Notes: a model not told the origin generated them from the letters alone. A stretch of 30,493 nt of DNA from a virus (IMGVR_UViG_3300032261_000326:1-30493), one strand, 5' to 3'. Numbered from the stretch's first letter, positions 7,645 through 30,415 are shown. Translations and numbers: made by a program.

Positions 7645-7655
7645 CGCAATCGCTT

Positions 7656-12097
<4,442 letters not shown>

Positions 12098-12101
<4 letters not shown>

Positions 12102-13860: not shown

Positions 13861-13863
13861 CGA

Positions 13864-14358
13864 TTATTGCGGAGGGATGTAGACCGGGGGAATCTGTATC
13901 GGCCAGTGCGCATCGTCGGTCGGATCGAGTGGCATACCGCCGATCATCGCGTCAGAGACTTCGCGCACGGCATTGACGAAATTCCAGCCGGCATCGGCGC
14001 TCGCCTTGCGATCGAGCGCATCCTGCGGCCACTGGCTTGTATCGGCGCCGTGGCTGGTGATGCTCTTGGTTTGGTCCTGATTGGCGTTGCGCTGCATGTA
14101 GTCAGGAAAAGAAATCTGCACGCGCCGGTTTGCCTCGGCATTCACGACGACGTTAGGAAACGATCGCCAATTGGCCGCAAGAACGTGACCGCCCGGCAAA
14201 CCAGGCGGTGCAGGAAGCACCGCATTATCGGGCACCGTCATGATAGTGATGCCGTCGCCGTAAGATTGCGTACTGCGAATGTCGGTGCTGTCGGGAAAGA
14301 ACGCCAAGACGTTAGGTTGCTGCTCGCCGAGATCGGCGCGCCGAACGATGACCTGCAT
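13864..14358 (-). CDS. Hypothetical tail-fibre-associated protein
   Basis: 164-aa ORF with RBS after the first fibre gene; EANRRV...FPDYMQRN and C-terminal P.DPTDDAHWP resemble fibre assembly proteins. Confidence 0.6.
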   Translation of the reverse strand: MQVIVRRADLGEQQPNVLAFFPDSTDIRSTQSYGDGITIMTVPDNAVLPAPPGLPGGHVLAANWRSFPNVVVNAEANRRVQISFPDYMQRNANQDQTKSITSHGADTSQWPQDALDRKASADAGWNFVNAVREVSDAMIGGMPLDPTDDAHWPIQIPPVYIPPQ

Positions 14359-14368
14359 GATTTTCCTC

Positions 14369-16033
14369 TTAGCTTAGGAGGACGACGCCGCCGTTGTTTC
14401 CCGGCCCGGAGTTGGCGGGCGGGCTCGACGTGCCCAACGACGAACTTTGATTCGCGTTGATGATGCCGTTGCCGGCAGCGTAAGCATCGAGCGTCGCGTT
14501 ACCGGTGGCGAGCGAGCCAGCGAGCCACAGCACGCCGCCCGAATTGGCATAGAGGCCATATTGGCCGTTCATTTGCGATTGGATTGCCGAGCTTGTGAAA
14601 ACGGCGTTTGATTCGACGGCGAGCCCGTACCATGCGTTGCCGTAGGTGCCGCAGTTAGTCCACGCGCCGCCGCCGCGCGTATGCGCGTAAACGCCGTGCG
14701 TCCAGCACCCGCAAACGAATACGTTGCTGGCGTCGAGCGTGCCCTCGATTGCGCAGATGCCAAAAGAACCGCTGCCCCATACTGCGCAGTTGTTCATAAA
14801 GACGGCACCGCCGTGCGGCGGTGCTACTGCGCAAACGGCACCGTAGCTTGCTCCGGCGTAGACATTCTGGCCGGTGAGCAAAAGTTGCGCGTAGGTGATG
14901 CGGCCAGGCCCGGTATGCTGCAAGGCGAAAAGTTGCGCATTGGTGAATTGGATTTCCGTACCGAAGCGCGTCCGCAGCATGGCGATGTTGGTCGCGCTGT
15001 CAGCAGCTCGAGCAGTCGCGCTGTTGCCGGTCTTGGCAAAGTCGCCAAAGCTGGGCATCGCTGCCAGCATTGTGCCAACTACTTGGATGCGATCAGAATC
15101 GACGTGATAGGTCGTGATCTGCGGAAACTGTCCGACTCCCATTTGAATCGTGAGCGTGACGTTGGGCGGGATGCGCTTGCGGCCGAGCTGATTGAAAATA
15201 TTCGCCATGTTGGGGAATTGCGTCGACGGCACGTTGAGCGTGACATTCTGCGACATAAACACGTTTGGCGAGATGTAGAACCGCGTCCCGTCGTACATGA
15301 ACAGGATGACGTCGCCGGCGATCATATCGCTCGGCAGGAGATCACCGCCGCCCATTGCAAAAATCGATTTTGCTCCCATGCCTTGCACGTTGATGGTGCT
15401 CGGGCCGGTGTTGGTGTTGGAGACCTTCACCATCAGGATCGTGCCGGGCGAGAGCGAGGTGACCGCCGGGCTGAAATTCGCGGTCACGAGGTTTGGCGTG
15501 ACGCTTGAATCCACGCAGTAAGGGATGTTGACGAGAAACGTCGAGCCGGTGCCGCCGCCCGCGCCACCGAAATTGACCATCTGAAACGCCGTGCCGTCAT
15601 AGGCGAGATCGATCAAACCGCCCGCGCTAATGTCGCCGGCGGAGAGCTGTGCGCCATTCGGCTTTTTGATCTGTACGCGACCAGCACCGGCGTCGATCGT
15701 GCAAACGTTGGTGTTGGTGTTGGCGACCTTAACGCGCAGCAGCAGGCCGAGCGTATAGCTCGTGAGCGGCGGATCGTAAGCAACCGAGAGCGTGTTAACC
15801 GAGCCAGTGTCTTGCGCGTAGTTCATCCGCTGTGAGCGGATGCCCTTCGCCGTCTGCATCAGGTCGCCATCATCGGGCGTGAACTGACTCTTGCTGATGA
15901 CAGCGACGATCTCGCGCATCGGGTATTCGAACGCCGACGCCGGCGGGATCGAGCCCTGACGCGCCTGGCTCGGATCGCCGTTGATGTAGTGAGCATCGGG
16001 GTCCGTGATGCCGTAGGGTTGCTGGTATTTCAT
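14369..16033 (-). CDS. Baseplate-proximal tail fibre/spike with two tandem ~80-aa repeats and a C-terminal parallel beta-helix-like region
   Basis: Directly follows gp48; N-terminal GSIPPASAFEYPMREIV anchor; two Y..D....N.......P........V.NTNT...TI...L..GD..AG......YDGT.F repeats; periodic G..G...N..YG C-terminus. GGAG RBS precedes ATG 16033. Confidence 0.78.
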   Translation of the reverse strand: MKYQQPYGITDPDAHYINGDPSQARQGSIPPASAFEYPMREIVAVISKSQFTPDDGDLMQTAKGIRSQRMNYAQDTGSVNTLSVAYDPPLTSYTLGLLLRVKVANTNTNVCTIDAGAGRVQIKKPNGAQLSAGDISAGGLIDLAYDGTAFQMVNFGGAGGGTGSTFLVNIPYCVDSSVTPNLVTANFSPAVTSLSPGTILMVKVSNTNTGPSTINVQGMGAKSIFAMGGGDLLPSDMIAGDVILFMYDGTRFYISPNVFMSQNVTLNVPSTQFPNMANIFNQLGRKRIPPNVTLTIQMGVGQFPQITTYHVDSDRIQVVGTMLAAMPSFGDFAKTGNSATARAADSATNIAMLRTRFGTEIQFTNAQLFALQHTGPGRITYAQLLLTGQNVYAGASYGAVCAVAPPHGGAVFMNNCAVWGSGSFGICAIEGTLDASNVFVCGCWTHGVYAHTRGGGAWTNCGTYGNAWYGLAVESNAVFTSSAIQSQMNGQYGLYANSGGVLWLAGSLATGNATLDAYAAGNGIINANQSSSLGTSSPPANSGPGNNGGVVLLS

Positions 16034-16043
16034 AGCCGACTCC

Positions 16044-16748
16044 TTAAGGCGTCCCTTGCATCGGCCCGCCGAACGCAAGCAAAGAGAAATCCATCGTCAG
16101 ATAGGTTTGTGCCGGCTTCCATCGATCGAGCAGACATTGCAGCTCTTGCGGCACAGAGAATTCGAGATGGTGATCGACGCCAGCTTGCCCGCTGCCGGCG
16201 CGAAACCAGGTCAGCCCGACTTGCCCGACTTCGATCGAGCAATAGAACCGGAGCTCAGGCGGCCCGATGTACCAGCGAAACTGCCCGGTATTGTCGAACA
16301 TGTTGCGCGTGTCGCCGCACTGACTGACACCCGCCATGAACGGCGCGAATTCCTTGATCTGGATGGTGTAGCCGAGCCACTCCATCACGCCTTCGAAATA
16401 CGCGCGCGACTGCCCGCCGAGATAAGTCATGATCAGCACCAGCATGCGCTGGCGCTCGGCGATCGTTGTTGCGCTCGGTAAGCATGGATCGGGAAGTCCC
16501 CACGCCCGTTCCCAGTCGGGAAGGAGCTCTATCGTCTGGCGCGGATCGCTCTCGCGCGCGAGCAGATCGGCCGCACGGCCATCGACGAAGCCCCAATAAT
16601 TCGCGAGACCGTTGACGGTCTGCACGAGAATGCTGTCCGACCAGCGAGGCCATGCCAGGCCTCGAGGCAGAAGCGCCAGCAATGCTTGCGCATAGTCAGC
16701 ACCCGAGCGTCGAATGTGACGATCAGGGATTAGGGGTGGCAGCGGCAT
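16044..16748 (-). CDS. Baseplate wedge protein, Mu gp48/YmfQ (DUF2313) family
   Basis: YAQALLALLPRGLAWP, ESDPRQTIELLPDWERAWGLPD, LQCLLDRWKPAQT. Confidence 0.92.
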   Translation of the reverse strand: MPLPPLIPDRHIRRSGADYAQALLALLPRGLAWPRWSDSILVQTVNGLANYWGFVDGRAADLLARESDPRQTIELLPDWERAWGLPDPCLPSATTIAERQRMLVLIMTYLGGQSRAYFEGVMEWLGYTIQIKEFAPFMAGVSQCGDTRNMFDNTGQFRWYIGPPELRFYCSIEVGQVGLTWFRAGSGQAGVDHHLEFSVPQELQCLLDRWKPAQTYLTMDFSLLAFGGPMQGTP

Positions 16749-17820
16749 AGTAGATGTCGCGGAGAACGGCCATGTGGCCGCCGCTTGGCATCACATCATC
16801 GATGTTGTTAGTGAGATCGAAGGAATTGACGCCGGGCGTGGACATGGTCGCGTAGGATTTCCACACCGCGTAGATCGTCTGGCCGGGCTTGGCCTTTTCG
16901 TAGAGCATGTCCTGCAGCGCGACGTCGATCGCGGCGCGGACATCCGGCGTATCGGGATTGAGGTTGGCGATATAGACGTCGATGAACTGCTTGATCGGCG
17001 CGAGCGCCCAGAAGTCCTTGACCGCGACCGGGCGCACGGAGTCGAGATACTGCGTCACCGGCACCAGATCGCTCTCGTAGGGAAAGCCGTCGTTGTCCGC
17101 GCGGAGATCGTCCATCATCACGCGCACAGTCACGGTGCCGATACCCATCTCGAGCGGCGAGCACCAGGCGCGCGTGACGCCGGGAACGGCGAGCGCCCAA
17201 TGCTCGTAGTCGTAGGCAGCACCGCCCTGTGGTGGCTGGCGAATGCGCTTAAGCACGCGCATGCGCAGCTCGTCGTCAGTCTCGACGTCGGTGCCGCCGG
17301 TCATCGTCACGATGATCGCGCCGCTGTCGATGCCCTGCGGCGGGTTGTTGACGTTCAAGCCGGTGCCAGGCTCGAGATTGCCAGCCGCGCCAGCGTTGAT
17401 CGCACGCAAGTCGCCGACGCCGTTGCCGCTCTCGTCGATGATGATGTTGGACAGCGTCTCATAGGTTTGGTTGTCGCCGCCCGTAAGTTGCGAGAACATC
17501 GGCAAGGTCGAGAGCGATGTCCCGGTGAACGTCCCGCTGCCATGCGCGAGCGTTGCAGCCTTCCGCCCCGTGGTGCCATCGGCGTTGACCAGCCAGATTT
17601 GACCGTGGCGATCGAGCCATTCGGTCTCAGCCGTGTCCGGTAGAAGTTGCAGCGCGAGCCAATCGATGTAGCGCAACGTATGGTGCGCCAGCCCGGCCAT
17701 CGCGTCGGCCATGACGCGGAGCACGTTGTTGCCGATGAACGCTGCACCATAGAGCGCCGCGGTGATGTCATCGCGCACCAGCTCGCGAACCTGGCGCAAC
17801 GTCGGAGTTTGCCAAGGCAT
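16723..17820 (-). CDS. Baseplate J / Mu gp47 family protein
   Basis: MPWQTPTL, QLLPDTAETEWLDRHG, GGTDVETDDELRMRVL.RIRQPPQGGA.YDYE.WALAVPGVTRAW. Confidence 0.95.
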   Translation of the reverse strand: MPWQTPTLRQVRELVRDDITAALYGAAFIGNNVLRVMADAMAGLAHHTLRYIDWLALQLLPDTAETEWLDRHGQIWLVNADGTTGRKAATLAHGSGTFTGTSLSTLPMFSQLTGGDNQTYETLSNIIIDESGNGVGDLRAINAGAAGNLEPGTGLNVNNPPQGIDSGAIIVTMTGGTDVETDDELRMRVLKRIRQPPQGGAAYDYEHWALAVPGVTRAWCSPLEMGIGTVTVRVMMDDLRADNDGFPYESDLVPVTQYLDSVRPVAVKDFWALAPIKQFIDVYIANLNPDTPDVRAAIDVALQDMLYEKAKPGQTIYAVWKSYATMSTPGVNSFDLTNNIDDVMPSGGHMAVLRDIYYAAATPNP

Positions 17821-18321
17821 TTATATTCCGGTGACGTCAGCCCAGAGATATTGAAAGCGCAGCTCGATCGCCGTCTTCGGGCCGCGATAGATCGTGACGT
17901 GAACGTCGATCTCCTGCTTACCGACACGGCTGGCTTGAACATCGATCTGCGACGCGATGCGGTTATCGATGATTGGCTGCAGTGCTTCCCGCGTGTAGGT
18001 CTGCGCGCGAATGACGGTCCCGCCCTCCCAGGAGAATTGATCGGAAATCTTTGCGCGTAGCAGCAGCCAGTTCTTGCAGCCGATCGGCCAGCCGCCCCAA
18101 ATTTCGTCGGCCTCGAGATCGCCCCACCAGCCGCGGCGATCGGTGCTGTCGGGATCGGGAAGCACCTCGTTGGCATCGGCGAGGCGATCGGTGCCAAGCG
18201 CTAAGCGCACCGCGGTCGCGACCTCTTCGTCTTCGCTCAACGCCCCATTCGGCAAAAGCAGCCAGTCCATGAACGTCCCGGCGAGCGAGACGCTGTCGCG
18301 AAGATGGGTGTCGGTCGGCAT
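17821..18321 (-). CDS. Mu gp46 family baseplate protein
   Basis: TAVRLALGTDRLA...LPDPDSTDRRGWWGD...IGCKNWLLLRAKI; TAATG overlap with the upstream gene. Confidence 0.93.
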   Translation of the reverse strand: MPTDTHLRDSVSLAGTFMDWLLLPNGALSEDEEVATAVRLALGTDRLADANEVLPDPDSTDRRGWWGDLEADEIWGGWPIGCKNWLLLRAKISDQFSWEGGTVIRAQTYTREALQPIIDNRIASQIDVQASRVGKQEIDVHVTIYRGPKTAIELRFQYLWADVTGI

Positions 18322-19403
18322 TAGGTCGCCCACCCCGCCGTCGCGTCATAGGCGATCACGGCATTGATGTCGGTGAGAGCGTTGACTTCGTTGGTCTTGT
18401 TGACGCGCGCGGTGAGCAAGTTCAGCCGCCTCGTCGTGATGCCGCTCATGAGCCCGGCCATCTCGGTTGCGGCGAGATTGACAGGCGAGGCGTTGCCGAT
18501 CGGCGTCCACTTAATCGGCGGCAGCGATGGATCAGGCGTCGTGGTCGCATGGCCGACGCTGACGAAAGTCGGGTAATAGACTTGCGTCAGCGAATAGGGA
18601 AACGTGTGCGGGTTGGTCTCGCCCGCCCAGGTGACGTTAGCCGGCGGGATCTGGCCGCCAAGACCGGGCATGCAAGTATTCGCCGGCGTGCCGCCGCTGC
18701 CGGTGCTCTGCAGTTTGTTGTTGAGCGTGTTGTGCGCGGGATTGCCATCGATGAGGCCGAGCACGGTGGTGTCATAGTGACTGCCGAGTCCGATGATCGC
18801 GCCGCCGAGATCGCCGAAAATGATGTTGATCGAACCAAATCCCGCATTGCCCTCGCTGAAATTGGCGTTGGCCGGGATCACGATCCACTGATTGACTTGG
18901 TTCTCGAATGCGTTACCCGGCGCGACGATCTTGGAATTGATCTCGTCCACGAGCGCGTTGATCTTGCCGACGACGGTTCCGTCGCTCGTGCCCGTCAGTG
19001 CAGACAAGAGGCTCGGGATGGTGGCGATCGACATGCCGGCGGCAGCGCTGTCGGTTGCCTCCCACATGAAATCGCCAGCGGCGACGACGTAGTGGAACGG
19101 GGCCGCCCGCTTGACCTCATAGATGTCGTTGATCAGCTCGACCTTGATCGCCTTCGCTTCGGCAAGGGTTGGCGGCACGGGCGACGCCAGCCGCGCTGTT
19201 GTCCAACCGTTGAGGAACGCTTGATAAGGCGAAGGATCGGCGAGCGGCTCGTTGAGGTTCGAATTGTATCGCCGCAAGTAGCCCTCTTCGCCGGTCCATT
19301 TCACGCTCGCGACGTCGCTTGGCAGCGCCGAGCAATCCATGTCCTCGCCGACATCATCGACGAAACCATAATTGCGATCGCGGTTGAAATTGAAGCGCAG
19401 CAT
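18321..19403 (-). CDS. Hypothetical virion-associated protein (360 aa), DUF4376-like termini with central insertion
   Basis: TGATG and TAATG overlaps at both ends; LAEAKAIKVELIND and C-terminal W......V.L...EM..L......R......R......VNALTDINAVIAYD...GW resemble fibre-associated DUF4376 proteins. Confidence 0.6.
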   Translation of the reverse strand: MLRFNFNRDRNYGFVDDVGEDMDCSALPSDVASVKWTGEEGYLRRYNSNLNEPLADPSPYQAFLNGWTTARLASPVPPTLAEAKAIKVELINDIYEVKRAAPFHYVVAAGDFMWEATDSAAAGMSIATIPSLLSALTGTSDGTVVGKINALVDEINSKIVAPGNAFENQVNQWIVIPANANFSEGNAGFGSINIIFGDLGGAIIGLGSHYDTTVLGLIDGNPAHNTLNNKLQSTGSGGTPANTCMPGLGGQIPPANVTWAGETNPHTFPYSLTQVYYPTFVSVGHATTTPDPSLPPIKWTPIGNASPVNLAATEMAGLMSGITTRRLNLLTARVNKTNEVNALTDINAVIAYDATAGWAT

Positions 19404-20434
19404 CACAACGCCTTTTTGAGCAACCAAAACAGCACGGGATGATTTTTCTCGAGCGCCGTTAGTCGTGCCTCGAGCGCGTCGAGGCGTGCGACGACCGCGT
19501 CGAGCTCGCTGGTCTTTGCCCAGAACACTCTTTTTGGAGGCGTCGCGCCTTCCTCGAGGCCGCCGGCGCTGGCGTAACTGCCACCACCACCCCCGCCACC
19601 CATGTTCGGCAACGGGCCAGCGCCGAGTCTCGCATGCACATTGTCGGAAATGCCATCTTCGGTCAGCACCTTGGCGAATTTTGCCTTGCCCTGCTCGTAG
19701 CCGAGCCAAACTTTTTGATCCTCGCTGACATGCACGTAACCCATGTCGTCCTTTGCCAGCATGAGCAGCGCATTCGTGCCCTGAACGCGCGAGCGATCAT
19801 CGGTGACATCGACGAATTTCTTCGCCTTGGAATTTTCCTGGTGTAAGGGTTGCTGCCCCTTTTTGTTTTGCTGCCCCTGTTGGCCTTGTTGCTGCCGTTG
19901 TTGCGGCGGCGTGACCAGCGCCATACGCGCGGTTCGCCCTTCCGGCGCGCTCATCAGTAGGCCGCTCTCGTGTAGATGGACTTGGGTATAGTCGTCTTTC
20001 TTGCGATGCAGAAAGACGTCGCCCTCGGCGGCCTTGACGTTCTTGCTGTTGACGCGATGGCGGCGATCGCCAACGACCGTGACGACGCCATGCGAGCGCG
20101 AGCCGTTCAGATAGTTGACGATGACCTCGGCGGCGTCGCCTTCGGGTTGCTGGCCTTGCTCGCCAGGGCCGCCGCCTTCACCGCCCTGACCGTTGCCGCC
20201 ATTCGACCCTTGCTGACGTTGCTGTGATTGCTGCTGTTGCGACTGATCCTGCTTGCACGGGTAGCAACTGAAACCGTAGTTGAACGCCATCTCGACGCCG
20301 GTGTGCGTCTCCGACTTCATCATGTCGATATCGACTTCCGGCCAGTAATGGTCGTCGGCCGATTGGCGCAACGTGCCGCGTGAGCTGTGCGTCTGCACCC
20401 GCCGAGATGCGTCGCTGAGCGTGGTTCGCATCAT
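19403..20434 (-). CDS. Baseplate spike, Mu gp45 family, with Gln/Gly-rich insertions and C-terminal coiled coil
   Basis: ETHTGVE...NYGFSCYP, AEVIVNYLNGSRSHGVVTVVGDRRHR...GDVFLH; position after gp44. Confidence 0.85.
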   Translation of the reverse strand: MMRTTLSDASRRVQTHSSRGTLRQSADDHYWPEVDIDMMKSETHTGVEMAFNYGFSCYPCKQDQSQQQQSQQRQQGSNGGNGQGGEGGGPGEQGQQPEGDAAEVIVNYLNGSRSHGVVTVVGDRRHRVNSKNVKAAEGDVFLHRKKDDYTQVHLHESGLLMSAPEGRTARMALVTPPQQRQQQGQQGQQNKKGQQPLHQENSKAKKFVDVTDDRSRVQGTNALLMLAKDDMGYVHVSEDQKVWLGYEQGKAKFAKVLTEDGISDNVHARLGAGPLPNMGGGGGGGSYASAGGLEEGATPPKRVFWAKTSELDAVVARLDALEARLTALEKNHPVLFWLLKKAL

Positions 20435-20437
20435 GGC

Positions 20438-21520
20438 TTATTGTCCGCCTTGCGAGCTGTAATCGGGGCCGGTCGATCGGCTCTCTTTGCTGAGCTCGAG
20501 CGTTGAGCGCGACCCGCCGCGATCGTCTTGCGAGAACGTCACCGCATTGAGGATGAGCTCGCGATCCATGATGAGCATTGGCGATTTCACGTAGGCGCTT
20601 TGACCGGGACGCCACAGACCGCCGCTCGGTCTAAGCCACCCCTGCACGACGATCTGCACGTTAATCTGCTCATAGCCGCGCCAAGCGCTTTCGAATTCCG
20701 CCCGCGATTGTGCGTCTTGCTTGTCGCCGGGATGCTCCACAAGCGTGTTAGCCGGGGAATGCACGCCCTGCGATCCGATCTGCCCCTGAACGTCGCTCGA
20801 CTGTTGGCCGGCGGGCCGCGCCGCGGTCGTGCCGTCGCTGCGCTCGTCGCTGCCGGTGTTTTGGCCCGACGAGTAATCGATCCCGGTGCCCTGAGCGATC
20901 GATATGACCTCGCGCCCCTCGAGGATGTTGACGCCCTCGATCAGCATGTCGCCGCCGCCGATCGGCGAGCCAAGCGCGCGACCGCGCAGATTGCCGTCGT
21001 CGTCGCTGCCGAGAACGACCTTGCGCATCCGTGCCAGCATGTCGAGCGTGTTCCAAACGCTCTCGCCAGGCGCGATGTTGAGGCGCTCGAATTTTTTCTG
21101 CGAAAGCGGTCCATAGGCCTTGAAGTTGAGCCCGTAGGGATTGACCAGGTCTTGCGCGATCTCGGTGAAGCTCTTGTTCTTGAATTCGCTGGTCTTGGTC
21201 ATCGCCGAGCCGTAGGCCAGCGCCTCGGAATACGAATTGCCGACGATCTCGACGCCGTGCTGATTGCCGGTATAGGCGACCTGGCGCGTGGTCACGAAGC
21301 CAGCGATCGCGCGCTCGCCCGCAAGCGTCACGGTGCAGTGATCGCCGGGCTTGATACGAAGCGCCGCAAAGCTCTTTGAGAATGGCGCGCCCTCGGTCGT
21401 CTGCAGGCGATACGAGTGCGAGGGGCCGCCCTCGATCAGATGAACCTGCACCGATTCCCAATCGAGAAACCGCATCCCATTGACGGTGATCTCGGCAATT
21501 TCCGACGCCTTGAACGCCAC
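20438..21520 (-). CDS. Baseplate hub, Mu gp44 (P) family
   Basis: ITVNGMRFLDWESVQV, IKPGDHCTVTLAGE, IAPGESVWNTLDMLAR, LIEGVNILEG, VQGWLRPSGGLWRPG. Confidence 0.92.
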   Translation of the reverse strand: MAFKASEIAEITVNGMRFLDWESVQVHLIEGGPSHSYRLQTTEGAPFSKSFAALRIKPGDHCTVTLAGERAIAGFVTTRQVAYTGNQHGVEIVGNSYSEALAYGSAMTKTSEFKNKSFTEIAQDLVNPYGLNFKAYGPLSQKKFERLNIAPGESVWNTLDMLARMRKVVLGSDDDGNLRGRALGSPIGGGDMLIEGVNILEGREVISIAQGTGIDYSSGQNTGSDERSDGTTAARPAGQQSSDVQGQIGSQGVHSPANTLVEHPGDKQDAQSRAEFESAWRGYEQINVQIVVQGWLRPSGGLWRPGQSAYVKSPMLIMDRELILNAVTFSQDDRGGSRSTLELSKESRSTGPDYSSQGGQ

Positions 21521-21523: not shown

Positions 21524-22195
21524 TCACGCGCTCAACGCCCTGATGCTGATGGGACAAAAAGCCGGATGAACGATCTTGTTCTCGGCGGCGATTTCCTCGT
21601 CGCGCGATCCATCCTGGTAGATCAAATTGCTGATCGCGAGCGCTGGCATGATCGCCGTCATCTGAAAGGCGACCATCCGCGGCAATGGTCTGCCGACGTC
21701 GGTCAGGTAGCGCGTGATGCCAGCCATCAATGTGATGAGCGCCTGATAGGTCGGGCCGTCCATCGTGTCGGCGACGAGATCACGCGCGATGTCGAACCAT
21801 CCCTTCATGTGCTTCATGGCTGCATCAACGTCATCTCGGCTGGTGTACGTGGTCGCGCCGATGATCTTGCCGTCCTGGGCGAGCGCAAACGTGATGCTGT
21901 TCTCGACGACGATCGAAGCTTCGAGCGAGATCGGCTGTTCGGTAGTGAGCTGCTCGAGCACGGCATCGAGTTGAAGGATGGTGATTCCCGCGGCGGTCGC
22001 CAGGCGAAAACATTGCAAGAGTCGGTTGGCGAATGTCCCGTCCGCCAAATAGACGGCGATATTCGCGTTGAGATCACCGACCGCAAACCGCAGATCGGCC
22101 CCCTGTTGACCGGCGATGCCGATGTCAGCAATGAGCAGGTTCGTCGTGCGCCCGACGATCGCCGAGATTTCCTCGATGGTGTCGCGCGTCGTCAT
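21524..22195 (-). CDS. C-terminal-half homologue of Mu gp43 (DNA circularisation / tube initiator) with LysM-like end
   Basis: TTYTSRDD, LPRMV......PALAISNLIYQDGSRDEEIAAENKIVHPAFCP; ATGA overlap with the upstream gene. Confidence 0.8.
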   Translation of the reverse strand: MTTRDTIEEISAIVGRTTNLLIADIGIAGQQGADLRFAVGDLNANIAVYLADGTFANRLLQCFRLATAAGITILQLDAVLEQLTTEQPISLEASIVVENSITFALAQDGKIIGATTYTSRDDVDAAMKHMKGWFDIARDLVADTMDGPTYQALITLMAGITRYLTDVGRPLPRMVAFQMTAIMPALAISNLIYQDGSRDEEIAAENKIVHPAFCPISIRALSA

Positions 22196-22749
22196 GCTGG
22201 TGCCGTTGCTGGTCGCGGTTGCGGGAGCGGGACGTTCTGCAGCGATGCGGTGCCGGTATTGATGGCGGTGGCTGATGCCGTCTCGGCAGCGCTGGCGTTT
22301 TGCGAGAGCATCGCGCCAGCATCGACCATCGCCTGCAGGACCGGCGCGCCCGCCTCGACGAACTGCATGTCGTACTCGACATAGCCGCCACGCTGGCGCT
22401 GATCGCTGTAGGACCAGCGTTCGCACATCACCATCATGGTCCCGAGTAGCGGATGGATCAGCATGCCGGCGGCAACGGCATCGAGCGCCAAGTTGAGCTG
22501 ATTGATCTGCGCGACGAGATTCGCGCCGATGCCGCGATCGCCCAGGATCAGATAGCCGGTAAAGTTCCAGCGGATCGCGTGGCGACCCATGTCTTCGGAG
22601 TAAGGTGCGTTGCGCTTTGGATACTCATGGACAACCGTACGACGGCCGCCCGCGCGCGAGCTCGCTTCGACATGAAAGACAACGCCGCGAAAGCTCGCCG
22701 GCACGAGACTGTCGCGCCAGACGTTATGGACGTCGCGGATCGAGGTCAT
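22192..22749 (-). CDS. DNA circularisation protein N-terminal domain (Mu gp43/N)
   Basis: WRDSLVPASFRGVVFHVE...GGRRTVVHEYPKRNAPYSEDMGR...GMLIHPLLG...MQFVEAG. Confidence 0.93.
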   Translation of the reverse strand: MTSIRDVHNVWRDSLVPASFRGVVFHVEASSRAGGRRTVVHEYPKRNAPYSEDMGRHAIRWNFTGYLILGDRGIGANLVAQINQLNLALDAVAAGMLIHPLLGTMMVMCERWSYSDQRQRGGYVEYDMQFVEAGAPVLQAMVDAGAMLSQNASAAETASATAINTGTASLQNVPLPQPRPATAPA

Positions 22750-25287
22750 TTATTCCTCGGCGTTCGCCGGTTCTGCCGGCGTCTTCTCGCGGCTCACGGT
22801 GGTATTGCCCTGAAAACCACCCTCGCTTTCGGTCTTGACGGTGGTGCCGCTCGGGGCGCGGATGTTGACCTTCAGCCCCATGCGGCTGCGCGGACGCGCG
22901 AGCATGCTCGTCACTTGCTCTCTGGCTCGATTTGTCGCCTTGCCCAGATCGACTGCCTCGCTGTCTGAGGGCGTCACGCTCTGCAACCAACTCGGAGCCG
23001 CTGACTTCTGGCCCCCGATATCCAAGTCGCCGATTTCGACGCGACCGGTTGGCCGTGCTCGCTGTTGCGATGACGGCCCCGGCTGGACGTCATCCCAACT
23101 TCTAAGACCTCTCGTCCAGCGCGTGACTGAGGTGCCTTCCTCCTTGTCACGATGACCGGGGTTGACTTCGCCGTGACCAAAGAAACGGCTGGGTGGGATG
23201 CCGTATTTCTTGCCGAGAAACACCGCGAGCTTGCGCATCGCTGCGATCTGTGCCGGCGTGAAATTTTTGTCCTCCTTGCCGGCGCCCGAGATGCCGATCG
23301 TATTCGCGTTGCTCAGTCCCGAGCCCATCGGACCCCAGCCAGGCAAGATGTGCGCGCCGCGTCTGCCGGTTCCGATGAATTGATAGATCGTGCCGTCGCG
23401 ATCGACGATAAAGTTGTAGCCAAGCCCGCGTTGGTTCATCGTATTGACGGCGCTCAACAGCGACGGCCCGCCGGTGTTGTGGACGATGACCGCCTGCGGA
23501 TTGATCTTGAATTGCGGGAATTGCCGAGTTGAGCGGCCAGTGATGTCGCGCACCTGCCCGAGATCGCTAATATCGCCGAGATCGACAGGCGTTGCGCCAG
23601 GGGGCCCGCGATCGCCACGCAGCGCGCGCTTGATGTGCTCGAGCGTGAACGGCTGCATGTTACGCGGCGTTGTAGCCTCTTCCGCTTCTGCCGGGCTTGT
23701 CGGCACCAGTGGCTCGCTGGTCTCTAGCGGGCCGCCGGTAGGAGAAACGCGACCACCCCTTGGAAAGCGAGTGCGCCCGCCACCGCCGCCCATGCCCCCG
23801 CCACCACCGGCGCGCCCGCCGCCGATACCGCCAAAGCCAAAGCCGCCGCCAATCGCGCGCGCTTCGGCTTCCTCGCCTAAGCCGAGATAGTCGTTCAAGC
23901 GTTTGAGCTCGTCAGTCGTCTTGTCGACGACTTCGTCGAGCTCCTTCATCACGCGGCGATCGCCATAGGCCGCAGCGGACTCGCTGCTACCCGTAAAGCG
24001 ATAAGGCGTCGTCTGCCCCAGAGTAGATGAGCGCAGAATAGTCATCGGAGGCGGGCGCTCGCCCTCGCCAGTGGATGCCGGTTGTGGCGTCTCGCCGCCG
24101 CCTTCTCCCGCCGGTGGAGCTGCAGGCGCGCCTCCGCCCTCTTTCGCTTCGGCCCCCTTTGCGCTCGTCGAAAGAGCCACGCCGAACGCAGTGAGCGCGC
24201 CGAAAACGAACATCAGCTTGCCAATCGCGCCGAGACCGCCAGCGACACCAAAAAGCCAACTGGAAAAGCCTAGCGCGACGACGCCCTCGATGATCGGTTT
24301 CCAGCCACCGATCTGCTGCACGATCGGATCGAGCGCAGCGAACGCTGCCTTCACATCGTCAAAAATCTTTTTGAGCGTCTGCAGCGCCGCGGTGAGCCCG
24401 TTTGCGATCGCATCCCAATCGATATTGATCGAGCGCGCCCATTCGGCAAACGCGTTGACGACATCGCGACCGGGGCCTTGCAACCATCGATCGAGCGAGT
24501 GAGTCAGTCGCTCGAATGCCGGCATCACCGCCATGCCGACGGTAGTTTTCAGATTATCGAAGGTGATGCCGAGATTCGTCCATGCGAGCTGATAGGCCCG
24601 CATCGTCGGCGTGTCTCGCCGTAGGTTTTCATTGAGCGGCCCAACGTCGAACATGTCGCGGTAGGTGACCGACGAGAGCCCGAACAACTTCTTGATCGAC
24701 TCCTGCGCATCCGGCGACATGCCTTTCATGCGCTCGGCCAGGACGCGCATGCCGGCTTCCCAACCGCCGGGGCCGCGCACCGCCTGCATGAGCTCTTGCG
24801 CGAGCTGCACGCCACCACGCCCGCGTGCGAGCTCGCGGAATATCTGTGACCGGCCGCCCTCTTGCTGCAGCGGACGCAGCGCGCGAACGACGCCCTCGAT
24901 ATTGCTGGTCGCTTGCTGACGGGAAAGACCGAGCGCCTGGCCGCGGGCAATAAGCTTCTCGAGCTGCTCGGTGGTGAGCCCGAGCTCGGAGGCGGTGTAG
25001 TGGAGCCCTAAGCCTTCGCGGGAGAAATTGGCGAGCGCTCGCGCCGCCGCGGCGATGCCGCCAATAAAGCCGGTGCTAATGATGGCGCCGGCGCCGGTGA
25101 GATTGACGAGAGTTTGCAGCTCGGTGTTGAGCTTCTGCGCGGCGCCTTCCAGGTCCTTGATGTCGGACTTCCATTTCGAGAATAGCGTGCGGCTCTCGAC
25201 ATTGTGCATGCGCTGGCGCACGCGCTCGAGCGACGCGGAGACCTCGTCGCGAATTAGGACTTCTACGACCGGTGCTTCAGCGGCCAT
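22750..25287 (-). CDS. Tape-measure-like protein 2 (845 aa) with N-acetylmuramoyl-L-alanine amidase (Amidase_2) domain
   Basis: Helical N-terminus with hydrophobic segment; AVIVHNT...GYNFIVDRDGTIYQ...GAH...NANTIGI...TPAQIAA...L...YGI.....GHGEV at about 23140-23505. Confidence 0.85.
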   Translation of the reverse strand: MAAEAPVVEVLIRDEVSASLERVRQRMHNVESRTLFSKWKSDIKDLEGAAQKLNTELQTLVNLTGAGAIISTGFIGGIAAAARALANFSREGLGLHYTASELGLTTEQLEKLIARGQALGLSRQQATSNIEGVVRALRPLQQEGGRSQIFRELARGRGGVQLAQELMQAVRGPGGWEAGMRVLAERMKGMSPDAQESIKKLFGLSSVTYRDMFDVGPLNENLRRDTPTMRAYQLAWTNLGITFDNLKTTVGMAVMPAFERLTHSLDRWLQGPGRDVVNAFAEWARSINIDWDAIANGLTAALQTLKKIFDDVKAAFAALDPIVQQIGGWKPIIEGVVALGFSSWLFGVAGGLGAIGKLMFVFGALTAFGVALSTSAKGAEAKEGGGAPAAPPAGEGGGETPQPASTGEGERPPPMTILRSSTLGQTTPYRFTGSSESAAAYGDRRVMKELDEVVDKTTDELKRLNDYLGLGEEAEARAIGGGFGFGGIGGGRAGGGGGMGGGGGRTRFPRGGRVSPTGGPLETSEPLVPTSPAEAEEATTPRNMQPFTLEHIKRALRGDRGPPGATPVDLGDISDLGQVRDITGRSTRQFPQFKINPQAVIVHNTGGPSLLSAVNTMNQRGLGYNFIVDRDGTIYQFIGTGRRGAHILPGWGPMGSGLSNANTIGISGAGKEDKNFTPAQIAAMRKLAVFLGKKYGIPPSRFFGHGEVNPGHRDKEEGTSVTRWTRGLRSWDDVQPGPSSQQRARPTGRVEIGDLDIGGQKSAAPSWLQSVTPSDSEAVDLGKATNRAREQVTSMLARPRSRMGLKVNIRAPSGTTVKTESEGGFQGNTTVSREKTPAEPANAEE

Positions 25288-25290
25288 CGC

Positions 25291-27789
25291 TTATTCGTAA
25301 TTGTATTGTGACCATTCCGTTGTATCGCCGCCCGCATGCGGCATCTGCGGCGTCTTTTTCGTCTTTGACGGCCGGAATAGATTTTTCTTGCCGTTGCCGT
25401 TCTTGGCGCCAGCGCCGACATCGATGTCGATTGAGGCGTTGCCGCTCATCACCTGTTGAGCGACGTCATGCGCGAGCGAGCGGTTGATTTTGGCGCGAGC
25501 TGATTCACGCCCGGCGATTTCAAGATCGCCGATTTCAACTCGTGGCCGCTCGCCGTCGCTGGTGTGTTGTCTTGGCCGCTCGCGATCTTGAATGCCGGGC
25601 CGCACGCCTGGCGGCAAGTTAGCGCCGAGATAGCGTCCCGTGATGCGCCGCCTGTTGGCGGCTTCCGTCGCTCGCTGACTGCCGTAAATTTCGTATGCAG
25701 CGCCAGCGCTGAGATCGACGACGCCCGGCGGTCCGACGTCAACTTTGCGCGTGACGTATTTGCGCCCGTCTGGCAGCGACAATTCGTACCAACCGCCTAG
25801 CCCACGTCGAGTCGCTGAGGCGAAGCCCGGTGTATCAGGCGGTAGGCCGCTCGCAAACGGACCCTCGCGATTGCGCATCGCGCCCCAATCGGTCCACACG
25901 TTGCCTTTCGGATCGGTGTATCGCCAGGGCTTGCCGAGAAACCATGTTTGCCCGCCAGCGACGTCAAAGCGACCACCGCCCGCTGTAGGTGCGCTGCTCG
26001 ATGGCGTGCTGCCCTCGACCGCTTGGCGGATTTGTTGGAGGTTGAACCGCCGCATCCCTTGCGGCCCGACTTGCGTGGGCGCTCCTGCCGGGCTCGTTGG
26101 TGCAGTTTGATCGCCATCGCTTGGCCCGCCGCTGGGCCCGCTCGGCGGCGTGCCGCCCGAGCCGAGACCGCCACCACCGCCCTCGAGACCCCCGCCGCCA
26201 CCACCGCCGCCGCCGAAGCCGCCGCCCCCAGCGCCCCCACCTTCGCCCGCCGGCATCAGATAATCGTTGAGCTTTGCGAGCTCGTCCTTCAGGTCCTTGA
26301 ATTCGTCAGTGAGATCCTCGCGCGTGCGACGATCCTCGATCGCGCCCGGCGAGAGATATTGCTCGCGCCCGGCGAGAAAATTCGGATCGGGATGAAAGCG
26401 AATATCATTCGGCCCGCCGCGGAGCATGTCGCGGAAGTCACCGAACTTTTGCGGCGTCGCTTCGGGATCATTATAAAATTCCGGCCCGAGCAAACGCCGC
26501 CACCAGGGAAGATTCTTCGGGCCAGGCAGTAGATCGATGCCACTCGGCGGCTCTCCTGGCGGATGCTCTTTGAGCGTCTCCTCACGATCCTCGCGCATCC
26601 GCTGGCGGAATTTCTCGATCTCTTCGCGATGCGTGAGGATGTAATAGAGCGCGCTGATGGTGCCGACGAGCGGCGTCAGCGCTCGCAGCACTGGCAACAA
26701 CGGCGCGATGCCGCGCAGGGCAAAGGCGACCGTACCAAGCCAACGAATGAACGGCAGCGCCATCAGTCCGATGATCACCTTCGTCCAATCCAGGCCGATC
26801 GACTTAATGACCTTGTCGGCGGTCTGGAATGCGGCGCCGATCTCGTCAGTCGCCTTCTTGAAATCAGCACTCAGGCGCTCGAGGCCTCCCAACTTGATCC
26901 AGGCGTCGATTGCCGCGGTGAGCTCGTTGCCCCAGGCGCTTATTTGCGCGACGAATTCTTTCCCCGTCTGCGACTGTAGCCACTTGTCGAGCGACTGCAT
27001 CAGCCGCGTCATCGATGGCAGGAGCGCGGTCCCGATGGTCGTTTTGATATTGTCCATCGAGATGCCGAGATTGGTTTGTGCGAGCTGATATTCGAGTAAC
27101 TGCCCCTTATCGAGCCGAATGCGCTGGTGCAGCTTGCCGAGCACGAGCTCGAGATCGCGATAAGCGACGCTCGGCAAGCCGAACATCTTCATGATCGAGG
27201 TTTGCGCCTCGGGCGACATGCCGCGCATGCGCGCGAATAGATGTTTCAGCCCGCCGATGACGCCATCGGGGCCTTGCATCGCGGCGACGACCTCCTTCGC
27301 CAACACGACGCCAGTGCCGCGCGCTCCGCGCGCTAATTCCTTGAACACCTCCGATTGCGGCCCGATGCGATTGAGCTCGCGCAGCTTCTCGATCGTGCTG
27401 CCGATGCCTTGCGCGGCCTGTTCTTGCGAGAGCCCGAGCGCGACCCCAGCATTGCGCAATTGTTCAAAGCGCTCGGTTGTGACGCCGAGCGCGGACGCCG
27501 TGTAGTGAAGCTGGAGGCCGGTGCGGGCAAAATCGCCGAGCGCCCGACTTGCCGCATAGAGGCTTGCAACGACACCGCCACCGATGACGCCGCCGACCGT
27601 GAGCTGCTTAAGCGTCGAGAGCTCGCGCCGCGCTGCCGAAGCCGCGCGCTCGAGCCCCTGAAATTCGCGCTGTCCCTTCGATGTGTTGAAGCTCTCGAGC
27701 TGGCGACGGTATTTGGCAAACGCCTCTTCCATCGCCTTCGAGAATTCATCCCGAAGGATCAGTTTAAGTTCGATTGACTGATCAGCCAT
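25291..27789 (-). CDS. Tape-measure-like protein 1 (832 aa) with RlpA-like double-psi beta-barrel domain
   Basis: Canonical TMP slot after the chaperone; helical N-terminus; ASG...PGFA......LGGWYEL..PDGR...TRKVDVGP.GVVDLSAGAA at about 25680-25960. Confidence 0.82.
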   Translation of the reverse strand: MADQSIELKLILRDEFSKAMEEAFAKYRRQLESFNTSKGQREFQGLERAASAARRELSTLKQLTVGGVIGGGVVASLYAASRALGDFARTGLQLHYTASALGVTTERFEQLRNAGVALGLSQEQAAQGIGSTIEKLRELNRIGPQSEVFKELARGARGTGVVLAKEVVAAMQGPDGVIGGLKHLFARMRGMSPEAQTSIMKMFGLPSVAYRDLELVLGKLHQRIRLDKGQLLEYQLAQTNLGISMDNIKTTIGTALLPSMTRLMQSLDKWLQSQTGKEFVAQISAWGNELTAAIDAWIKLGGLERLSADFKKATDEIGAAFQTADKVIKSIGLDWTKVIIGLMALPFIRWLGTVAFALRGIAPLLPVLRALTPLVGTISALYYILTHREEIEKFRQRMREDREETLKEHPPGEPPSGIDLLPGPKNLPWWRRLLGPEFYNDPEATPQKFGDFRDMLRGGPNDIRFHPDPNFLAGREQYLSPGAIEDRRTREDLTDEFKDLKDELAKLNDYLMPAGEGGGAGGGGFGGGGGGGGGLEGGGGGLGSGGTPPSGPSGGPSDGDQTAPTSPAGAPTQVGPQGMRRFNLQQIRQAVEGSTPSSSAPTAGGGRFDVAGGQTWFLGKPWRYTDPKGNVWTDWGAMRNREGPFASGLPPDTPGFASATRRGLGGWYELSLPDGRKYVTRKVDVGPPGVVDLSAGAAYEIYGSQRATEAANRRRITGRYLGANLPPGVRPGIQDRERPRQHTSDGERPRVEIGDLEIAGRESARAKINRSLAHDVAQQVMSGNASIDIDVGAGAKNGNGKKNLFRPSKTKKTPQMPHAGGDTTEWSQYNYE

Positions 27790-27792: not shown

Positions 27793-27990
27793 CTATTCGG
27801 GAGGCTGCGCGGCCTCTTGCTCGGCTGTGATCGCGTCGGCGAGCTTCGCAGTCCAGCGTAGATGCCGGCCGAGTTCGCTGATTGTCTTTTCGAGAAAAAT
27901 GCAGGGATCGACGTGATAAAAGTGCGCCAGCCGATAGCAGTCGAGCACCACGTCGTCGGGGTTTATTACCCCATGGCCGGCATAAAAAAA
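27793..27990 (-). CDS. Tail chaperone frameshift extension (lambda gpT / P2 gpE'-like), reached by -1 frameshift
   Basis: -1 frame FFYAGHGVINPDDVVLDCYRLAHFYHVDP...ISEL..HL.W stays open from the T7 run to 27793, ending 4 nt before TMP1. Confidence 0.78.
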   Translation of the reverse strand, partial: FFYAGHGVINPDDVVLDCYRLAHFYHVDPCIFLEKTISELGRHLRWTAKLADAITAEQEAAQPPE

Positions 27991-28325
27991 CGTACGAGCT
28001 TCCAGGCTATCGTGTTCCAGTCCCCCGCTGGAATTTGCCGCACGCTCGAGGGCGGAATCTGTGCCAGCGTCGAGATCATCGCCGACATTTTCTTTTCGTC
28101 GAACGTGACTCGCGGCTGCTCGAGCCCGAACACCTCGAGGATGATGGGGTTGCCGGCGCGCTCGATATCGCCCGCGGTCGGCTCCCGCCATTTGATGATC
28201 TTGACTTCCTCGCCGTGCGCCTGAATCGGCTTGCTCAACGTTAGCATCAGATCGTTGGCTGGCACGCCATTAGCCTGGGGAGGCGCTTCGCCACCGGCAG
28301 GCGCTTCAGTTTCATTCTCCGCCAT
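27966..28325 (-). CDS. Tail assembly chaperone (Mu gp41 / FluMu gp41-like)
   Basis: LTLSKPIQAHGEEVKIIKWREPTAGDI...LAQIPPSSVRQI...DW......FF; located between tube and TMP. Confidence 0.9.
   Translation of the reverse strand: MAENETEAPAGGEAPPQANGVPANDLMLTLSKPIQAHGEEVKIIKWREPTAGDIERAGNPIILEVFGLEQPRVTFDEKKMSAMISTLAQIPPSSVRQIPAGDWNTIAWKLVRFFMPAMG
27984..27990 (-). promoter_or_regulatory. Programmed -1 ribosomal frameshift slippery site T TTT TTT
   Basis: CGT TTT TTT ATG in the chaperone frame, five codons before its stop. Confidence 0.8.
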
Positions 28326-28383: not shown

Positions 28384-28746
28384 TTAGCCGATCTCGTCGC
28401 AGCTCGTGCCTTCCCAGCGGACGCGAACCTGACCCTCTCGGGTGTTGTTCTCGAGCGCCGATTTGCAGGCCGCCTCTTTGAGGACGTAGACTTTTTCATT
28501 CGCGAGCTCCGCGGTGACGGTCACCTCGACCATCTGCTCGAGCGTCTCGAGGCTGACCTCTTGCGTGGTGCTGACGTCGCCCTCGATCCACGGCACGCGC
28601 GGGAGCTCTTGATAGCCGTGGACGTAGTCCTGACCGGCGAGCATCGTGCGTTCGAGTGAGCTGGGCGAGACCGTGAAATTTCCTCTCAACGGATACTGAT
28701 TGCCGTCGATTTTGAGGAACGCCGTTCCGGCGATTCTCTGTGCCAT
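28384..28746 (-). CDS. Tail tube protein (Mu gpM family)
   Basis: RIAGTAFLKIDG.QY.LRG...RT.LAGQD.VHGY.ELPRVPWIEG...TVTAELAN.KVYVL..A...EGQVRVRWEG; AAGGAG RBS. Confidence 0.95.
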   Translation of the reverse strand: MAQRIAGTAFLKIDGNQYPLRGNFTVSPSSLERTMLAGQDYVHGYQELPRVPWIEGDVSTTQEVSLETLEQMVEVTVTAELANEKVYVLKEAACKSALENNTREGQVRVRWEGTSCDEIG

Positions 28747-28770
28747 AGTTGGCTCCTTTTGTAGGAAAGC

Positions 28771-28792
28771 CGCGTCATCACGACGGGGCGAG
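28771..28792 (-). promoter_or_regulatory. Conserved leader hairpin motif, copy 1 (upstream of tube gene)
   Basis: Minus strand CTCGCCCCGTCGTGATGACGCG, 20/22 identical to the copy at 30442-30463. Confidence 0.65.
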
Positions 28793-28796
28793 TGAA

Positions 28797-28820
28797 AGCG
28801 CCGCGCGCTTGCGCGGCGCT
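28797..28820. repeat. Perfect 10-bp GC inverted repeat between sheath and tube genes
   Basis: AGCGCCGCGC-GCTT-GCGCGGCGCT. Confidence 0.7.
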
Positions 28821-28855
28821 ACGCTGCGAGGGTCGCGTCTCCTTGCGTTGGGGGA

Positions 28856-30415
28856 TTAGTTGATGATCTCGAGGTCCTGGCCGCGGTCGTATTGCAGGCG
28901 GAATTGTGCCAGCACGGCGAAGACGCGGAGTTGATTCACGAGATCAGGCGGATAGAGCACGTTCAGGCGGTTGGGGTCCTGGTTGTCCCTCTCAACCACG
29001 AGATGGTCCTTGAATGCCTGCAAGTTCTCTACGAGACCGTTGAACTCATCGATCGCATACTGCGCGACGAGCTCGGCCGTGATGACCTTCGGCGTGACGA
29101 TCTTCTGACCGACACCGAAGCGCGTGCCGTCATCCGCCAATTTATATCTTGGGTATTTCGACGTGATGACCTGACGCTGATTGCGAATGAGCTTCGCCAA
29201 AGTTGCGAGCGTAGTGACGAGCTCATAGGCGTCATCGCTCTGTCCGTACAGATTGAGCTGATAGGTGGTGGTCTCACGCATGATGTGTGAGACGTTGGTC
29301 AAACTGGCTTGTTGTGTGGCGATGCCGGCGCCCGAGAGACTGTTGAGCTCAGGCAAGTTGAAGCGATCGTTCCCCTTCGCCGGGAGGATGCTGTCGAGCG
29401 TGAGCGTCTGCAGCGGACGGGCCGGATCGTTCGTCAAAGCGCGCGCAGCTTTGGCAGTGTAGGCGCAAGCCCATTCATAGGTCGGGCTCGGCGCATTCGG
29501 CTCGACCGCCATCACTGAGAGCACGCCTGAGTTTTGCGTCGCGCCCCAGATGATCAGGTTCGAATAGGTGTCGCGCTTGGCCGCGAACAAGTGACCGTAA
29601 AGCTGGCGCATCCAGCCCCAGCGCCCGGTGTCGCCGAAGCCGTATTCCTGCTCCCACATGAACAGGGTATTGCTGTCGGTGTTGGCGAGCGCGACATATT
29701 CAAACTGTTGCTCACCAAGCGCGGCGATGCCGGCGGTGTAGTCGGGGATGCCAGCGCCGCCAGAGAGCATGTTGTTCGCCGGCAGAGTGACGACCAGGCC
29801 GGGCGGCAATTCCTGACCGCCGATCGCGCCGTAGTAGTTGAGCCACACGCTGATGTCGTTGCCATTGACGCCCGGCGTCTTGCACGTGATCGTGCATTTG
29901 TTCGTCGTCGCCACGGCATAGACCGGAAGCGCGTCGTTGTTGTTGATCGCGGCAGCGAGATTGGTCGCGATGTTCGCAGTCGTGTCAGTGGTGCCGACGA
30001 CGATGGCGACCAAGTGCCCGGCGATATAGACGTTGAGCATTCCGGCTTCGGTTGCCGGCGATGTAAACGTGATGTCGCCATGTGCCGCGACCGCGCCTAC
30101 CGGCGTGGTGACCGGCAAGCACCACATCTCCTGCGCAAAGTTATTCGCCAGAAACGCTTGCACCATGCAGCCGATCTCGGAGCCTTGACCGAAGTAGTGA
30201 TCGGCTTGCGCTTGCGTGCCGATCGGGATCGGCACATTCGGAACGCCGATGCCAGCGACGACGCCCGTCGGCGGTGGCGGCGTAGCGGGGATCATCGAGC
30301 CAACAAGCAGCGCCGGGTTCCGCACGATCGGCAGACCGGCCATGCTGGGGTCTACTTCGACCCAATAGAGCGGCATCCGCCAGTTTTGCGGAATGTTGTC
30401 AAAGCTGATGGGCAT
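28856..30415 (-). CDS. Contractile tail sheath protein (Mu gpL family)
   Basis: ISFDNIPQNWRMPLYWVEVDPSMA, GRWGWMRQLYGH, DPARPLQTL.L, SKYPRYKLADDGTRFG.GQ.IVTP, VERD..DPNRLNVLYPPDLVNQLRVFA. Confidence 0.97.
   Translation of the reverse strand: MPISFDNIPQNWRMPLYWVEVDPSMAGLPIVRNPALLVGSMIPATPPPPTGVVAGIGVPNVPIPIGTQAQADHYFGQGSEIGCMVQAFLANNFAQEMWCLPVTTPVGAVAAHGDITFTSPATEAGMLNVYIAGHLVAIVVGTTDTTANIATNLAAAINNNDALPVYAVATTNKCTITCKTPGVNGNDISVWLNYYGAIGGQELPPGLVVTLPANNMLSGGAGIPDYTAGIAALGEQQFEYVALANTDSNTLFMWEQEYGFGDTGRWGWMRQLYGHLFAAKRDTYSNLIIWGATQNSGVLSVMAVEPNAPSPTYEWACAYTAKAARALTNDPARPLQTLTLDSILPAKGNDRFNLPELNSLSGAGIATQQASLTNVSHIMRETTTYQLNLYGQSDDAYELVTTLATLAKLIRNQRQVITSKYPRYKLADDGTRFGVGQKIVTPKVITAELVAQYAIDEFNGLVENLQAFKDHLVVERDNQDPNRLNVLYPPDLVNQLRVFAVLAQFRLQYDRGQDLEIIN

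Follow-up and report, generated by a model that had tools for sequence, protein, structure and literature searches.

Contractile tails of the Mu type are built from a short, conserved series of genes. In Mu (gp39-gp48), SfV (orf11-18) and AH07, sheath and tube are followed by a tail-assembly chaperone, the tape measure protein (TMP) as well as gp43-gp48, and each of these phages has one TMP gene, whose product is 611-690 amino acids long. The same order recurs in the DNA considered here, a single soil-phage record of 30,493 bases (IMGVR_UViG_3300032261_000326:1-30493; 'the window' denotes this whole stretch) with a contractile tail operon on its minus strand, and the sheaths of SfV-type isolates are 40-44% identical to the window sheath. 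The locus differs from the described tails in that its TMP slot holds two genes, TMP-A and TMP-B, with predicted hydrolase cassettes, in that gp43 is split, and in that an additional open reading frame (ORF) stands between gp45 and gp46. Comparison with relatives suggests that the two proteins are old paralogues that retain complementary parts of one C-terminal motif, and that they may well be assembled together in one tail.

Tape measure proteins elsewhere provide the frame for this suggestion. In T5 pb2 and phiCbK gp95, as in the window TMPs, a hydrophobic stretch precedes a wall-cutting domain near the C-terminus; that of phiCbK is a CHAP domain (PMC3556154), and T5 pb2 is cleaved between the hydrophobic stretch and the muralytic domain (10.1101/2022.09.20.507954). 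In lambda, gpH is cleaved within a Gly-rich stretch close to the C-terminus (PMC12617516). T5 and phiCbK are nevertheless siphophages with one TMP gene each, no paralogue and no split anchor motif, and in these respects are unlike the window. Six TMP chains in the tube and three at the tip are described for lambda, with A-1(L) and HFTV1 cited in the same report (PMC12617516), and for P7-1 gp82 (PMC13338283); the Pam3 TMP is a hexamer (PMC9942802), and two C3 sets of TMP chains have been proposed for P2 (10.64898/2026.09.14.750843). The lambda, P7-1, A-1(L) and HFTV1 proteins and the Pam3 hexamer offer two chain environments that the window pair would divide. In those systems one gene product occupies both environments, whereas in the window two genes would do so.

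Two paralogues in one slot

TMP-A (25291-27789, minus strand, 832 amino acids) and TMP-B (22750-25287, minus strand, 845 amino acids) are intact, adjacent frames separated by 3 nucleotides and flanked by the tail chaperone (Phage_TAC_7) and gp43/DNA_circ_N, precisely where the initial annotation of the window had seen two long ORFs in a single TMP position. Contigs of X3 and X4, two other soil runs compared out of four, bridge the gene junction without any difference, and the tandem is therefore not an assembly artefact. Joints that seemed to connect the two poly-Gly linkers were dismissed as repeat noise, their sides being shorter than 30 nucleotides. The N-termini are truly homologous, as had been claimed: BLASTP aligns residues 1-372 at 42% identity (E 1e-73), and local alignment of the N-terminal 330 amino acids scores 603, the highest of 500 shuffles (the number used throughout) reaching 69. 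All motifs quoted as common to both ORFs were found. The claim that the two align along their full length holds for the N-terminal 372 residues and for short islands, but fails at residues ~375-480 and in the cassette. The middle region scores 71 (shuffle maximum 43) and the C-terminal tail 61 (maximum 46), while the cassette slot, at 34, equals the shuffle mean of 34; the cassettes of TMP-A and TMP-B are thus unrelated.

The conserved N-terminal region comprises residues 1-372 of TMP-A (26674..27789, minus strand) and 1-366 of TMP-B (24190..25287, minus strand) and leads in both into a hydrophobic stretch (from about residue 338 and at about residues 332-376, respectively) with a Kyte-Doolittle peak of 1.89 in each. 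Matches of TMP-A to PhageMin_Tail/TMP_2 and to a PHROG TMP family (E 2e-5) are weak, and its Pfam matches, like those of TMP-B, lie below the cut-off; for the N-terminal region of TMP-B the PHROG matches are phrog_2013 (E 4e-12) and phrog_9570 (TMP, E 2e-9). Further along, TMP-A has an ELAKLNDYL motif and a poly-Gly linker (residues 503-548; 26146..26283, minus strand), of which the TMP-B equivalent lies at about 23770-23910 (minus strand).

A C-terminal motif divided between two genes

Relatives were gathered by a sheath search, taking the best 80 of 458 viral matches and 16 genome loci, and a locus was kept if chaperone and gp43 both flank the slot. Truncated loci, near-duplicates (L001, L003, L006, L007, L009, L010, L013, L015, L029, L043, L045, L078, L083 and L087) and two loci with broken frames (L032 and L093) were left out. 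The remaining complete, non-redundant loci number 11 paired and 30 single, and two further pairs, L058 and L089, are truncated by the end of their contig. In single TMPs the C-terminal motif consists of a first strand, an AP-G turn with a second strand, a GLF element, a third strand and a QTQM tail. Paired copies divide these elements into two types. TMP-A is of the Y type, keeping strand 1, LF and the QM tail (residues 783-832; 25294..25443, minus strand), with I789, F805 and M816 invariant across 27 Y-type sequences; TMP-B is of the X type, keeping the AP-G-V turn and strands 2-3 without the QM tail (residues 805-833; 22789..22875, minus strand). In the motif census 29 of 30 singles end in the QM tail, compared with 9 of the 12 Y and 1 of the 12 X copies; the AP-G-V turn occurs in 27 of the singles, in 10 X copies and in 1 Y copy.

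Because types named by their motifs invite circularity, the copies were also scored against a profile of 26 singles, with X defined by the score of strands 2 and 3 alone. So defined, the non-X copy has the higher strand 1 score in all 11 complete pairs and the higher GLF score in 9, and QM occurs in 9 of the 11 non-X copies as against none of the 11 X copies. Scores that complement each other across pairs are the opposite of what one-sided decay predicts. A search of the full library, its rows taken without genomic context, gave 42 top-scoring full-length representatives, 23 with QM and 19 without, and none with both motifs. In a quick tree TMP-A falls within a 19-row clade whose members all carry QM and TMP-B within a 15-row clade in which none does (SH-like approximate likelihood ratio test 99 each); near the window, that is, C-terminal type tracks N-terminal lineage. 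The pattern is best read as duplication with complementary degeneration, in which each copy lost a different part of the single-type motif, with L038, L055, L089, L100 and L102 as exceptions.

Outside the family the motif is hard to follow. The C-termini of Mu, SfV and AH07 show the same layout of three strands and a tail by eye, without statistical significance; with the single-TMP C-terminus as query, a PDB sequence search found no significant match and an Atlas search no useful row. In a more distant TMP group, inspected by eye without genomic context, tail-only, strand-only and complete ends are seen (P0093, P0125 and P0134; P0111, P0114, P0116, P0118, P0123 and P0144; P0097 and P0124).

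Paired and single loci

All 13 pairs consist of N-terminally homologous paralogues (24-57% identity) with intergenic gaps of -1 to 7 nucleotides, and in 11 paired loci, where the two copies are 28-57% identical, neither frame is broken. Given that each paired copy (724-1071 amino acids) is as long as a single TMP (738-1057 amino acids), the pairs reflect duplication, and fission of one long TMP is ruled out. The nearly equal length of the window paralogues, earlier taken as a conserved trait, is a coincidence of this locus: they differ by 13 amino acids, the members of other pairs by 11-294. Length is better kept on one side of the linker than on the other, the stretch up to the pre-linker motif differing by 10-62 amino acids within pairs and the stretch behind it by 32-232 (10 pairs, in five of which the motif scores below 5 bits on one side; its position was taken from a motif hidden Markov model, a Gly-window gauge having proved unreliable). 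The X chain is usually the longer, with a median of 976 amino acids compared with 741 for Y.

In genome contigs, mostly of Bradyrhizobium and other Alphaproteobacteria, all 12 readable loci are single. Scanning directly for the TMPs turned up just four distinct related loci among viral contigs and no such locus among genome contigs, and one match, L008, was an unrelated non-contractile tail. The window begins at the sheath. HK97-type portal and protease-capsid genes are present in all four paired relatives that were checked, which marks the paired loci as phages and makes 'Mu-like' a valid description of the tail only; a tailocin is ruled out by these head genes and by a head-tail adaptor that lies upstream of a sheath with the identical sequence. 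An earlier description of tandem or paralogous TMP genes was not found in the papers searched, a set with few subscription titles. The 'two tape measure' passages of PMC3556154 and PMC3447690 concern chaperones and proteomic homologues, respectively, and PMC12796354 and PMC10811340 held nothing relevant.

Probable repeated duplication

On the sheath tree of 39 loci the paired or single state needs seven changes, six of them forced by starred branches, and gains of a second TMP are not separable there from losses. On the tree of TMP N-termini, paralogues of one locus or small group cluster together, the single L072 is sister to the L055 pair, and the single L068 is sister to the L051/L066/L071 group. 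Approximately unbiased tests, which used 48 rows after removal of near-duplicates and of L018, L058 and L089, reject a single clade for all X copies (p 5e-5) and likewise for all paired copies (p 2e-6). Some lineages have the gene order Y-X, others X-Y. Repeated duplication of the TMP gene is the simplest reading of these sequence trees, although gene conversion could mimic it, and the history may instead involve swapping of C-terminal modules or reversion through fusion. As far as sequence can tell, the duplication is real, old and recurrent. Intact frames in 11 loci, deep orthologous clades and invariant motif residues bear out the earlier proposal that both paralogues are maintained.

Cassettes as probably interchangeable cargo

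The initial annotation had assigned an RlpA-like double-psi beta-barrel (DPBB) to one TMP and an Amidase_2 domain to the other, in the same slot. Pfam confirms the second assignment. The TMP-B cassette (23122..23502, minus strand) matches Amidase_2 (PF01510) at E 1e-18, with 68.3 bits compared to a curated cut-off of 26; among solved structures it is closest to T7 lysozyme (E 5e-7) and AmpDh2 (E 4e-6), and its His603, Tyr624 and His705 align with residues of one or the other. These aligned residues are candidates for zinc-ligand and catalytic roles. The DPBB is suggested, indirectly, by the Atlas and a family profile and not by Pfam, where the TMP-A cassette (25615..25962, minus strand) has no DPBB_1 (PF03330) match at E up to 1. 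Its Atlas model resembles an RlpA cluster (TM 0.57), a profile of nine related cassettes, from which the window and its nearest homologue were kept out, finds it at E 2e-6, and an 11-sequence cassette profile matches a four-sequence RlpA profile at 95% (E 4.5e-8) over 51 columns of the C-terminal half. Further, Asp684 (DVGP) and Asp692 (VDLS) align to the conserved aspartates of the RlpA DRGP and IDLS motifs. Counting against the RlpA assignment, a two-sequence cassette profile reaches only 5%. AlphaFold2 models of the cassette, alone and with a 21-row alignment, had pLDDT values (predicted local distance difference test) of 36 and 42 and no Foldseek match at E <= 0.001, and a PDB sequence search with the cassette alignment found no significant match. 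Profile and model comparisons together make the TMP-A cassette likely RlpA-like, with an activity that is predicted. In predicted fold and several motif residues the cassettes resemble, respectively, Pseudomonas RlpA and the Amidase_2 enzymes T7 lysozyme and AmpDh2, but they differ from these in being embedded in a TMP, in having no SPOR domain and in a DPBB too divergent for Pfam. A Pfam-positive DPBB_1 does occur, next to an M15 peptidase, in the X copy of L004 (10458-13607).

It is tempting to see the pairing of two hydrolase activities, which the initial annotation pictured as possibly delivered together, as the reason for two genes, but the relatives speak against this. The slot is hypervariable in singles as well, where CHAP, M15, M23, SLT, lysozyme, glucosaminidase and amidase domains are found, and about 25 of the 30 single TMPs hold two cassette segments in one chain, as read from clusters that include some linker; Pfam itself gives two cassettes in the singles L042, L047 and L080. 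The window pair, with two cassettes in total, has no more than a typical single TMP, and in L002 both copies carry a homologous cassette (46%). An amidase cassette similar to that of TMP-B (42% identity) also lies within an 891-amino-acid protein of another kind in the unrelated phage L005 (7290-9965), which indicates that the cassette moves between virion proteins. The best explanation is that the cassettes are interchangeable cargo and not why the pair is kept.

A proposed mixed ruler and its alternatives

What might hold two TMP genes together is suggested by the chain environments of other tails. At the baseplate, where symmetry steps from six to three, the TMP chains of single-gene relatives would have two roles. 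If this TMP family, too, has six chains standing in two environments, a duplicate would be free to lose the part that its own environment does not use, which is the split pattern seen. We consider it reasonably probable, on comparative grounds, that TMP-A and TMP-B, old paralogues with complementary motif parts, are co-assembled in one tail as a mixed ruler, probably with three chains of each; the window has one set of chaperone, hub and spike genes beside its two TMPs. The hetero-oligomeric TMP raised in the initial annotation is thus the best reading, and the complementary C-termini give it stronger grounds than those first offered. In such a tail the LF...QM end of the TMP-A chains would reach the trimeric hub and spike, and the beta-strands of TMP-B would be seated higher up. 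Segment 674-690 of the Mu TMP can be matched by eye, without statistical significance, to the LF...QM stretch that TMP-A keeps, making TMP-A the likelier tip-binding chain. The N-terminal 470-510 residues of both would form a shared ruler and, after contraction, a membrane channel, while everything that follows the Gly linker would be set free in the periplasm, perhaps by a cut at the linker as in lambda and T5. There the amidase would take off stem peptides, leaving stripped glycan for the RlpA-like domain to cut; RlpA cuts amidase-denuded glycan (PMC9712689), and the two cassettes of the window could therefore act in sequence.

Several observations weigh against the mixed ruler. That Mu-type tails contain six chains is not established: the published account of Mu gp42 is of a trimer in which residues 674-690 alone were built (PMC11915804), and trimers are likewise described for the TMPs of diffocin (PMC11329794), T5 (10.1101/2022.09.20.507954) and phi92 (PMC13450770). 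The division of the motif is also imperfect, in that the profile tail score has opposite signs in only 8 of 11 pairs, the Y copies of L038 and L055 are without QM, copy 1 of L089 holds both motifs, and the singles L100 and L102 have X-element scores below zero despite being the sole TMP in their slot. Counted by lineage, the strand 1 result shrinks to five of five (two-sided p ~0.06), with a slim margin in L071. The X copies of L050, L051, L055, L066 and L071 share a G[AG]F..TET[NS]RT ending, which may reflect shared ancestry or module exchange and not convergence. That X chains are longer than Y chains is not predicted if the X chain ends higher in the tube. In the cassettes, a Ser takes the place of the AmpDh2 Glu in the TMP-B amidase, only two candidate His ligands could be placed, and the combination of amidase and DPBB is seen at the window locus only, the DPBB partners in L012 and L020 holding other cassettes.

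Some of these points can be turned into a different account, in which one paralogue, probably TMP-A with its QM end, is the sole trimeric ruler and the other a passenger, loaded into tail or baseplate, that brings extra wall hydrolases and has no role in length. A trimeric Mu TMP, the longer X chains with their usually greater number of cassettes, and the absence of a recognisable X element from L100 and L102 would all suit it. Against it, X copies have an entire N-terminal region and the hydrophobic stretch and match their partners in the distance up to the pre-linker motif, and Y has shed strands that 27 of 30 singles and its own partner retain; this account is unlikely. Two further arrangements would have both proteins measure length. 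If each TMP formed its own homo-oligomeric ruler, two virion types with different wall enzymes would result, as the initial annotation had also envisaged, and both proteins are indeed full length with different cassettes. Yet neither copy has the complete motif and the genes are tightly coupled in all 13 pairs, making two virion types very unlikely; further, no switch between them is visible, the gene junction having no promoter-like site and the flanks no pair of inverted repeats. Alternatively, the two trimers might be stacked head to tail along the tube, each adding its length to that of the tail. C3 sets one above the other are allowed by the P2 preprint (10.64898/2026.09.14.750843), and two docking sites would need C-termini that differ, as these do, but the ends are complementary halves of the whole single-TMP motif rather than a new docking site, and both N-termini remain alike. 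Stacking is accordingly highly improbable.

The remaining possibility is that one copy is a redundant, decaying leftover. Paired and single states do interconvert on the sheath tree, and the readable loci of genome contigs are uniformly single. Decay is at odds, however, with two intact frames that persist in the 11 loci at such low mutual identity, with the deep orthologous clades and invariant motif residues of both copies, and with a G+C content at third codon positions of 0.71-0.73 in the TMP pair, near the 0.78-0.82 of the other tail genes. This explanation is largely refuted already and retains only a very slight probability. The mixed ruler can also be stated more fully, as a 3+3 heteromeric TMP that arose by independent duplications, splitting the anchor motif alike each time and so turning two baseplate roles into two genes with their own cargo each. 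In that extended form it is tentative, with somewhat more room for doubt than for belief.

The surrounding operon

The operon runs on the minus strand from sheath and tube through the chaperone, the two long ORFs, gp43 as two genes and gp44-gp48 to fibres and a lysin-like gene. Sheath and tube are present once each (28384..30415, minus strand). The single chaperone gene (27966-28325, minus strand; whole region 27793..28325) has a run of seven T at 27984-27990 and an open extension frame to 27793, and from sequence the two likely form a programmed frameshift pair serving both TMPs; a T-run occupies the matching chaperone position in 46 of 47 other loci examined. The tube initiator gp43 is encoded by two adjacent genes (21524..22749, minus strand), the first of which begins directly at the TMP-B stop codon. 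They correspond to a tube-like and a helical part, as in L002 and L004, while Mu and SfV have one gene. Hub (gp44), spike (gp45), gp46, gp47 and gp48 follow as one gene each (16044..21520, minus strand). The spike (19403-20434, minus strand) has 343 amino acids with Gln/Gly-rich insertions, compared with 197 in its Mu counterpart, and the ORF between gp45 and gp46 (18321-19397, minus strand; ~358 amino acids) has no family match, although similar ORFs of 413 and 466 amino acids occupy the equivalent place in L002 and L004.

Beyond the baseplate genes lie several fibre-like genes (5747-16078, minus strand), two with collagen repeats (460 and 1491 amino acids), and then a methyltransferase and a glycosyltransferase, which possibly modify the fibres. 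A lysin-like protein (4148-5731, minus strand) combines TIGR02594, PG_binding_1 and an unnamed C-terminal domain. Bacterial-type genes (TctC, GFA and HTH-PAS; 1-2304, plus strand) occupy the left end of the window and suggest a prophage boundary near 2.5-4 kb. Elsewhere in the family, L066 has two tandem tube-like genes (11620-12399) in addition to two TMPs, and the prophage loci L092, L098, L100, L102, L103 and L106 have insertions of 1.9-8 kb between sheath and tube.

Implications for tape measure biology

Whether TMPs assemble as three or six chains, and what becomes of the three C-termini that stop short of the tip, are live questions in recent cryo-electron microscopy papers. A natural two-gene TMP would label both chain populations, such that stoichiometry could be counted and chain roles placed directly. 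What stands out in the finding is that the anchor motif is split in a complementary way, since TMP stoichiometry and chain roles thereby become open to direct test; the split also predicts the residues that act at the tip and those that act further up. More broadly, this TMP family shows a hypervariable slot with many kinds of wall-hydrolase domains; if the 3+3 TMP is real, each gene would be free to swap its own wall-hydrolase cargo.

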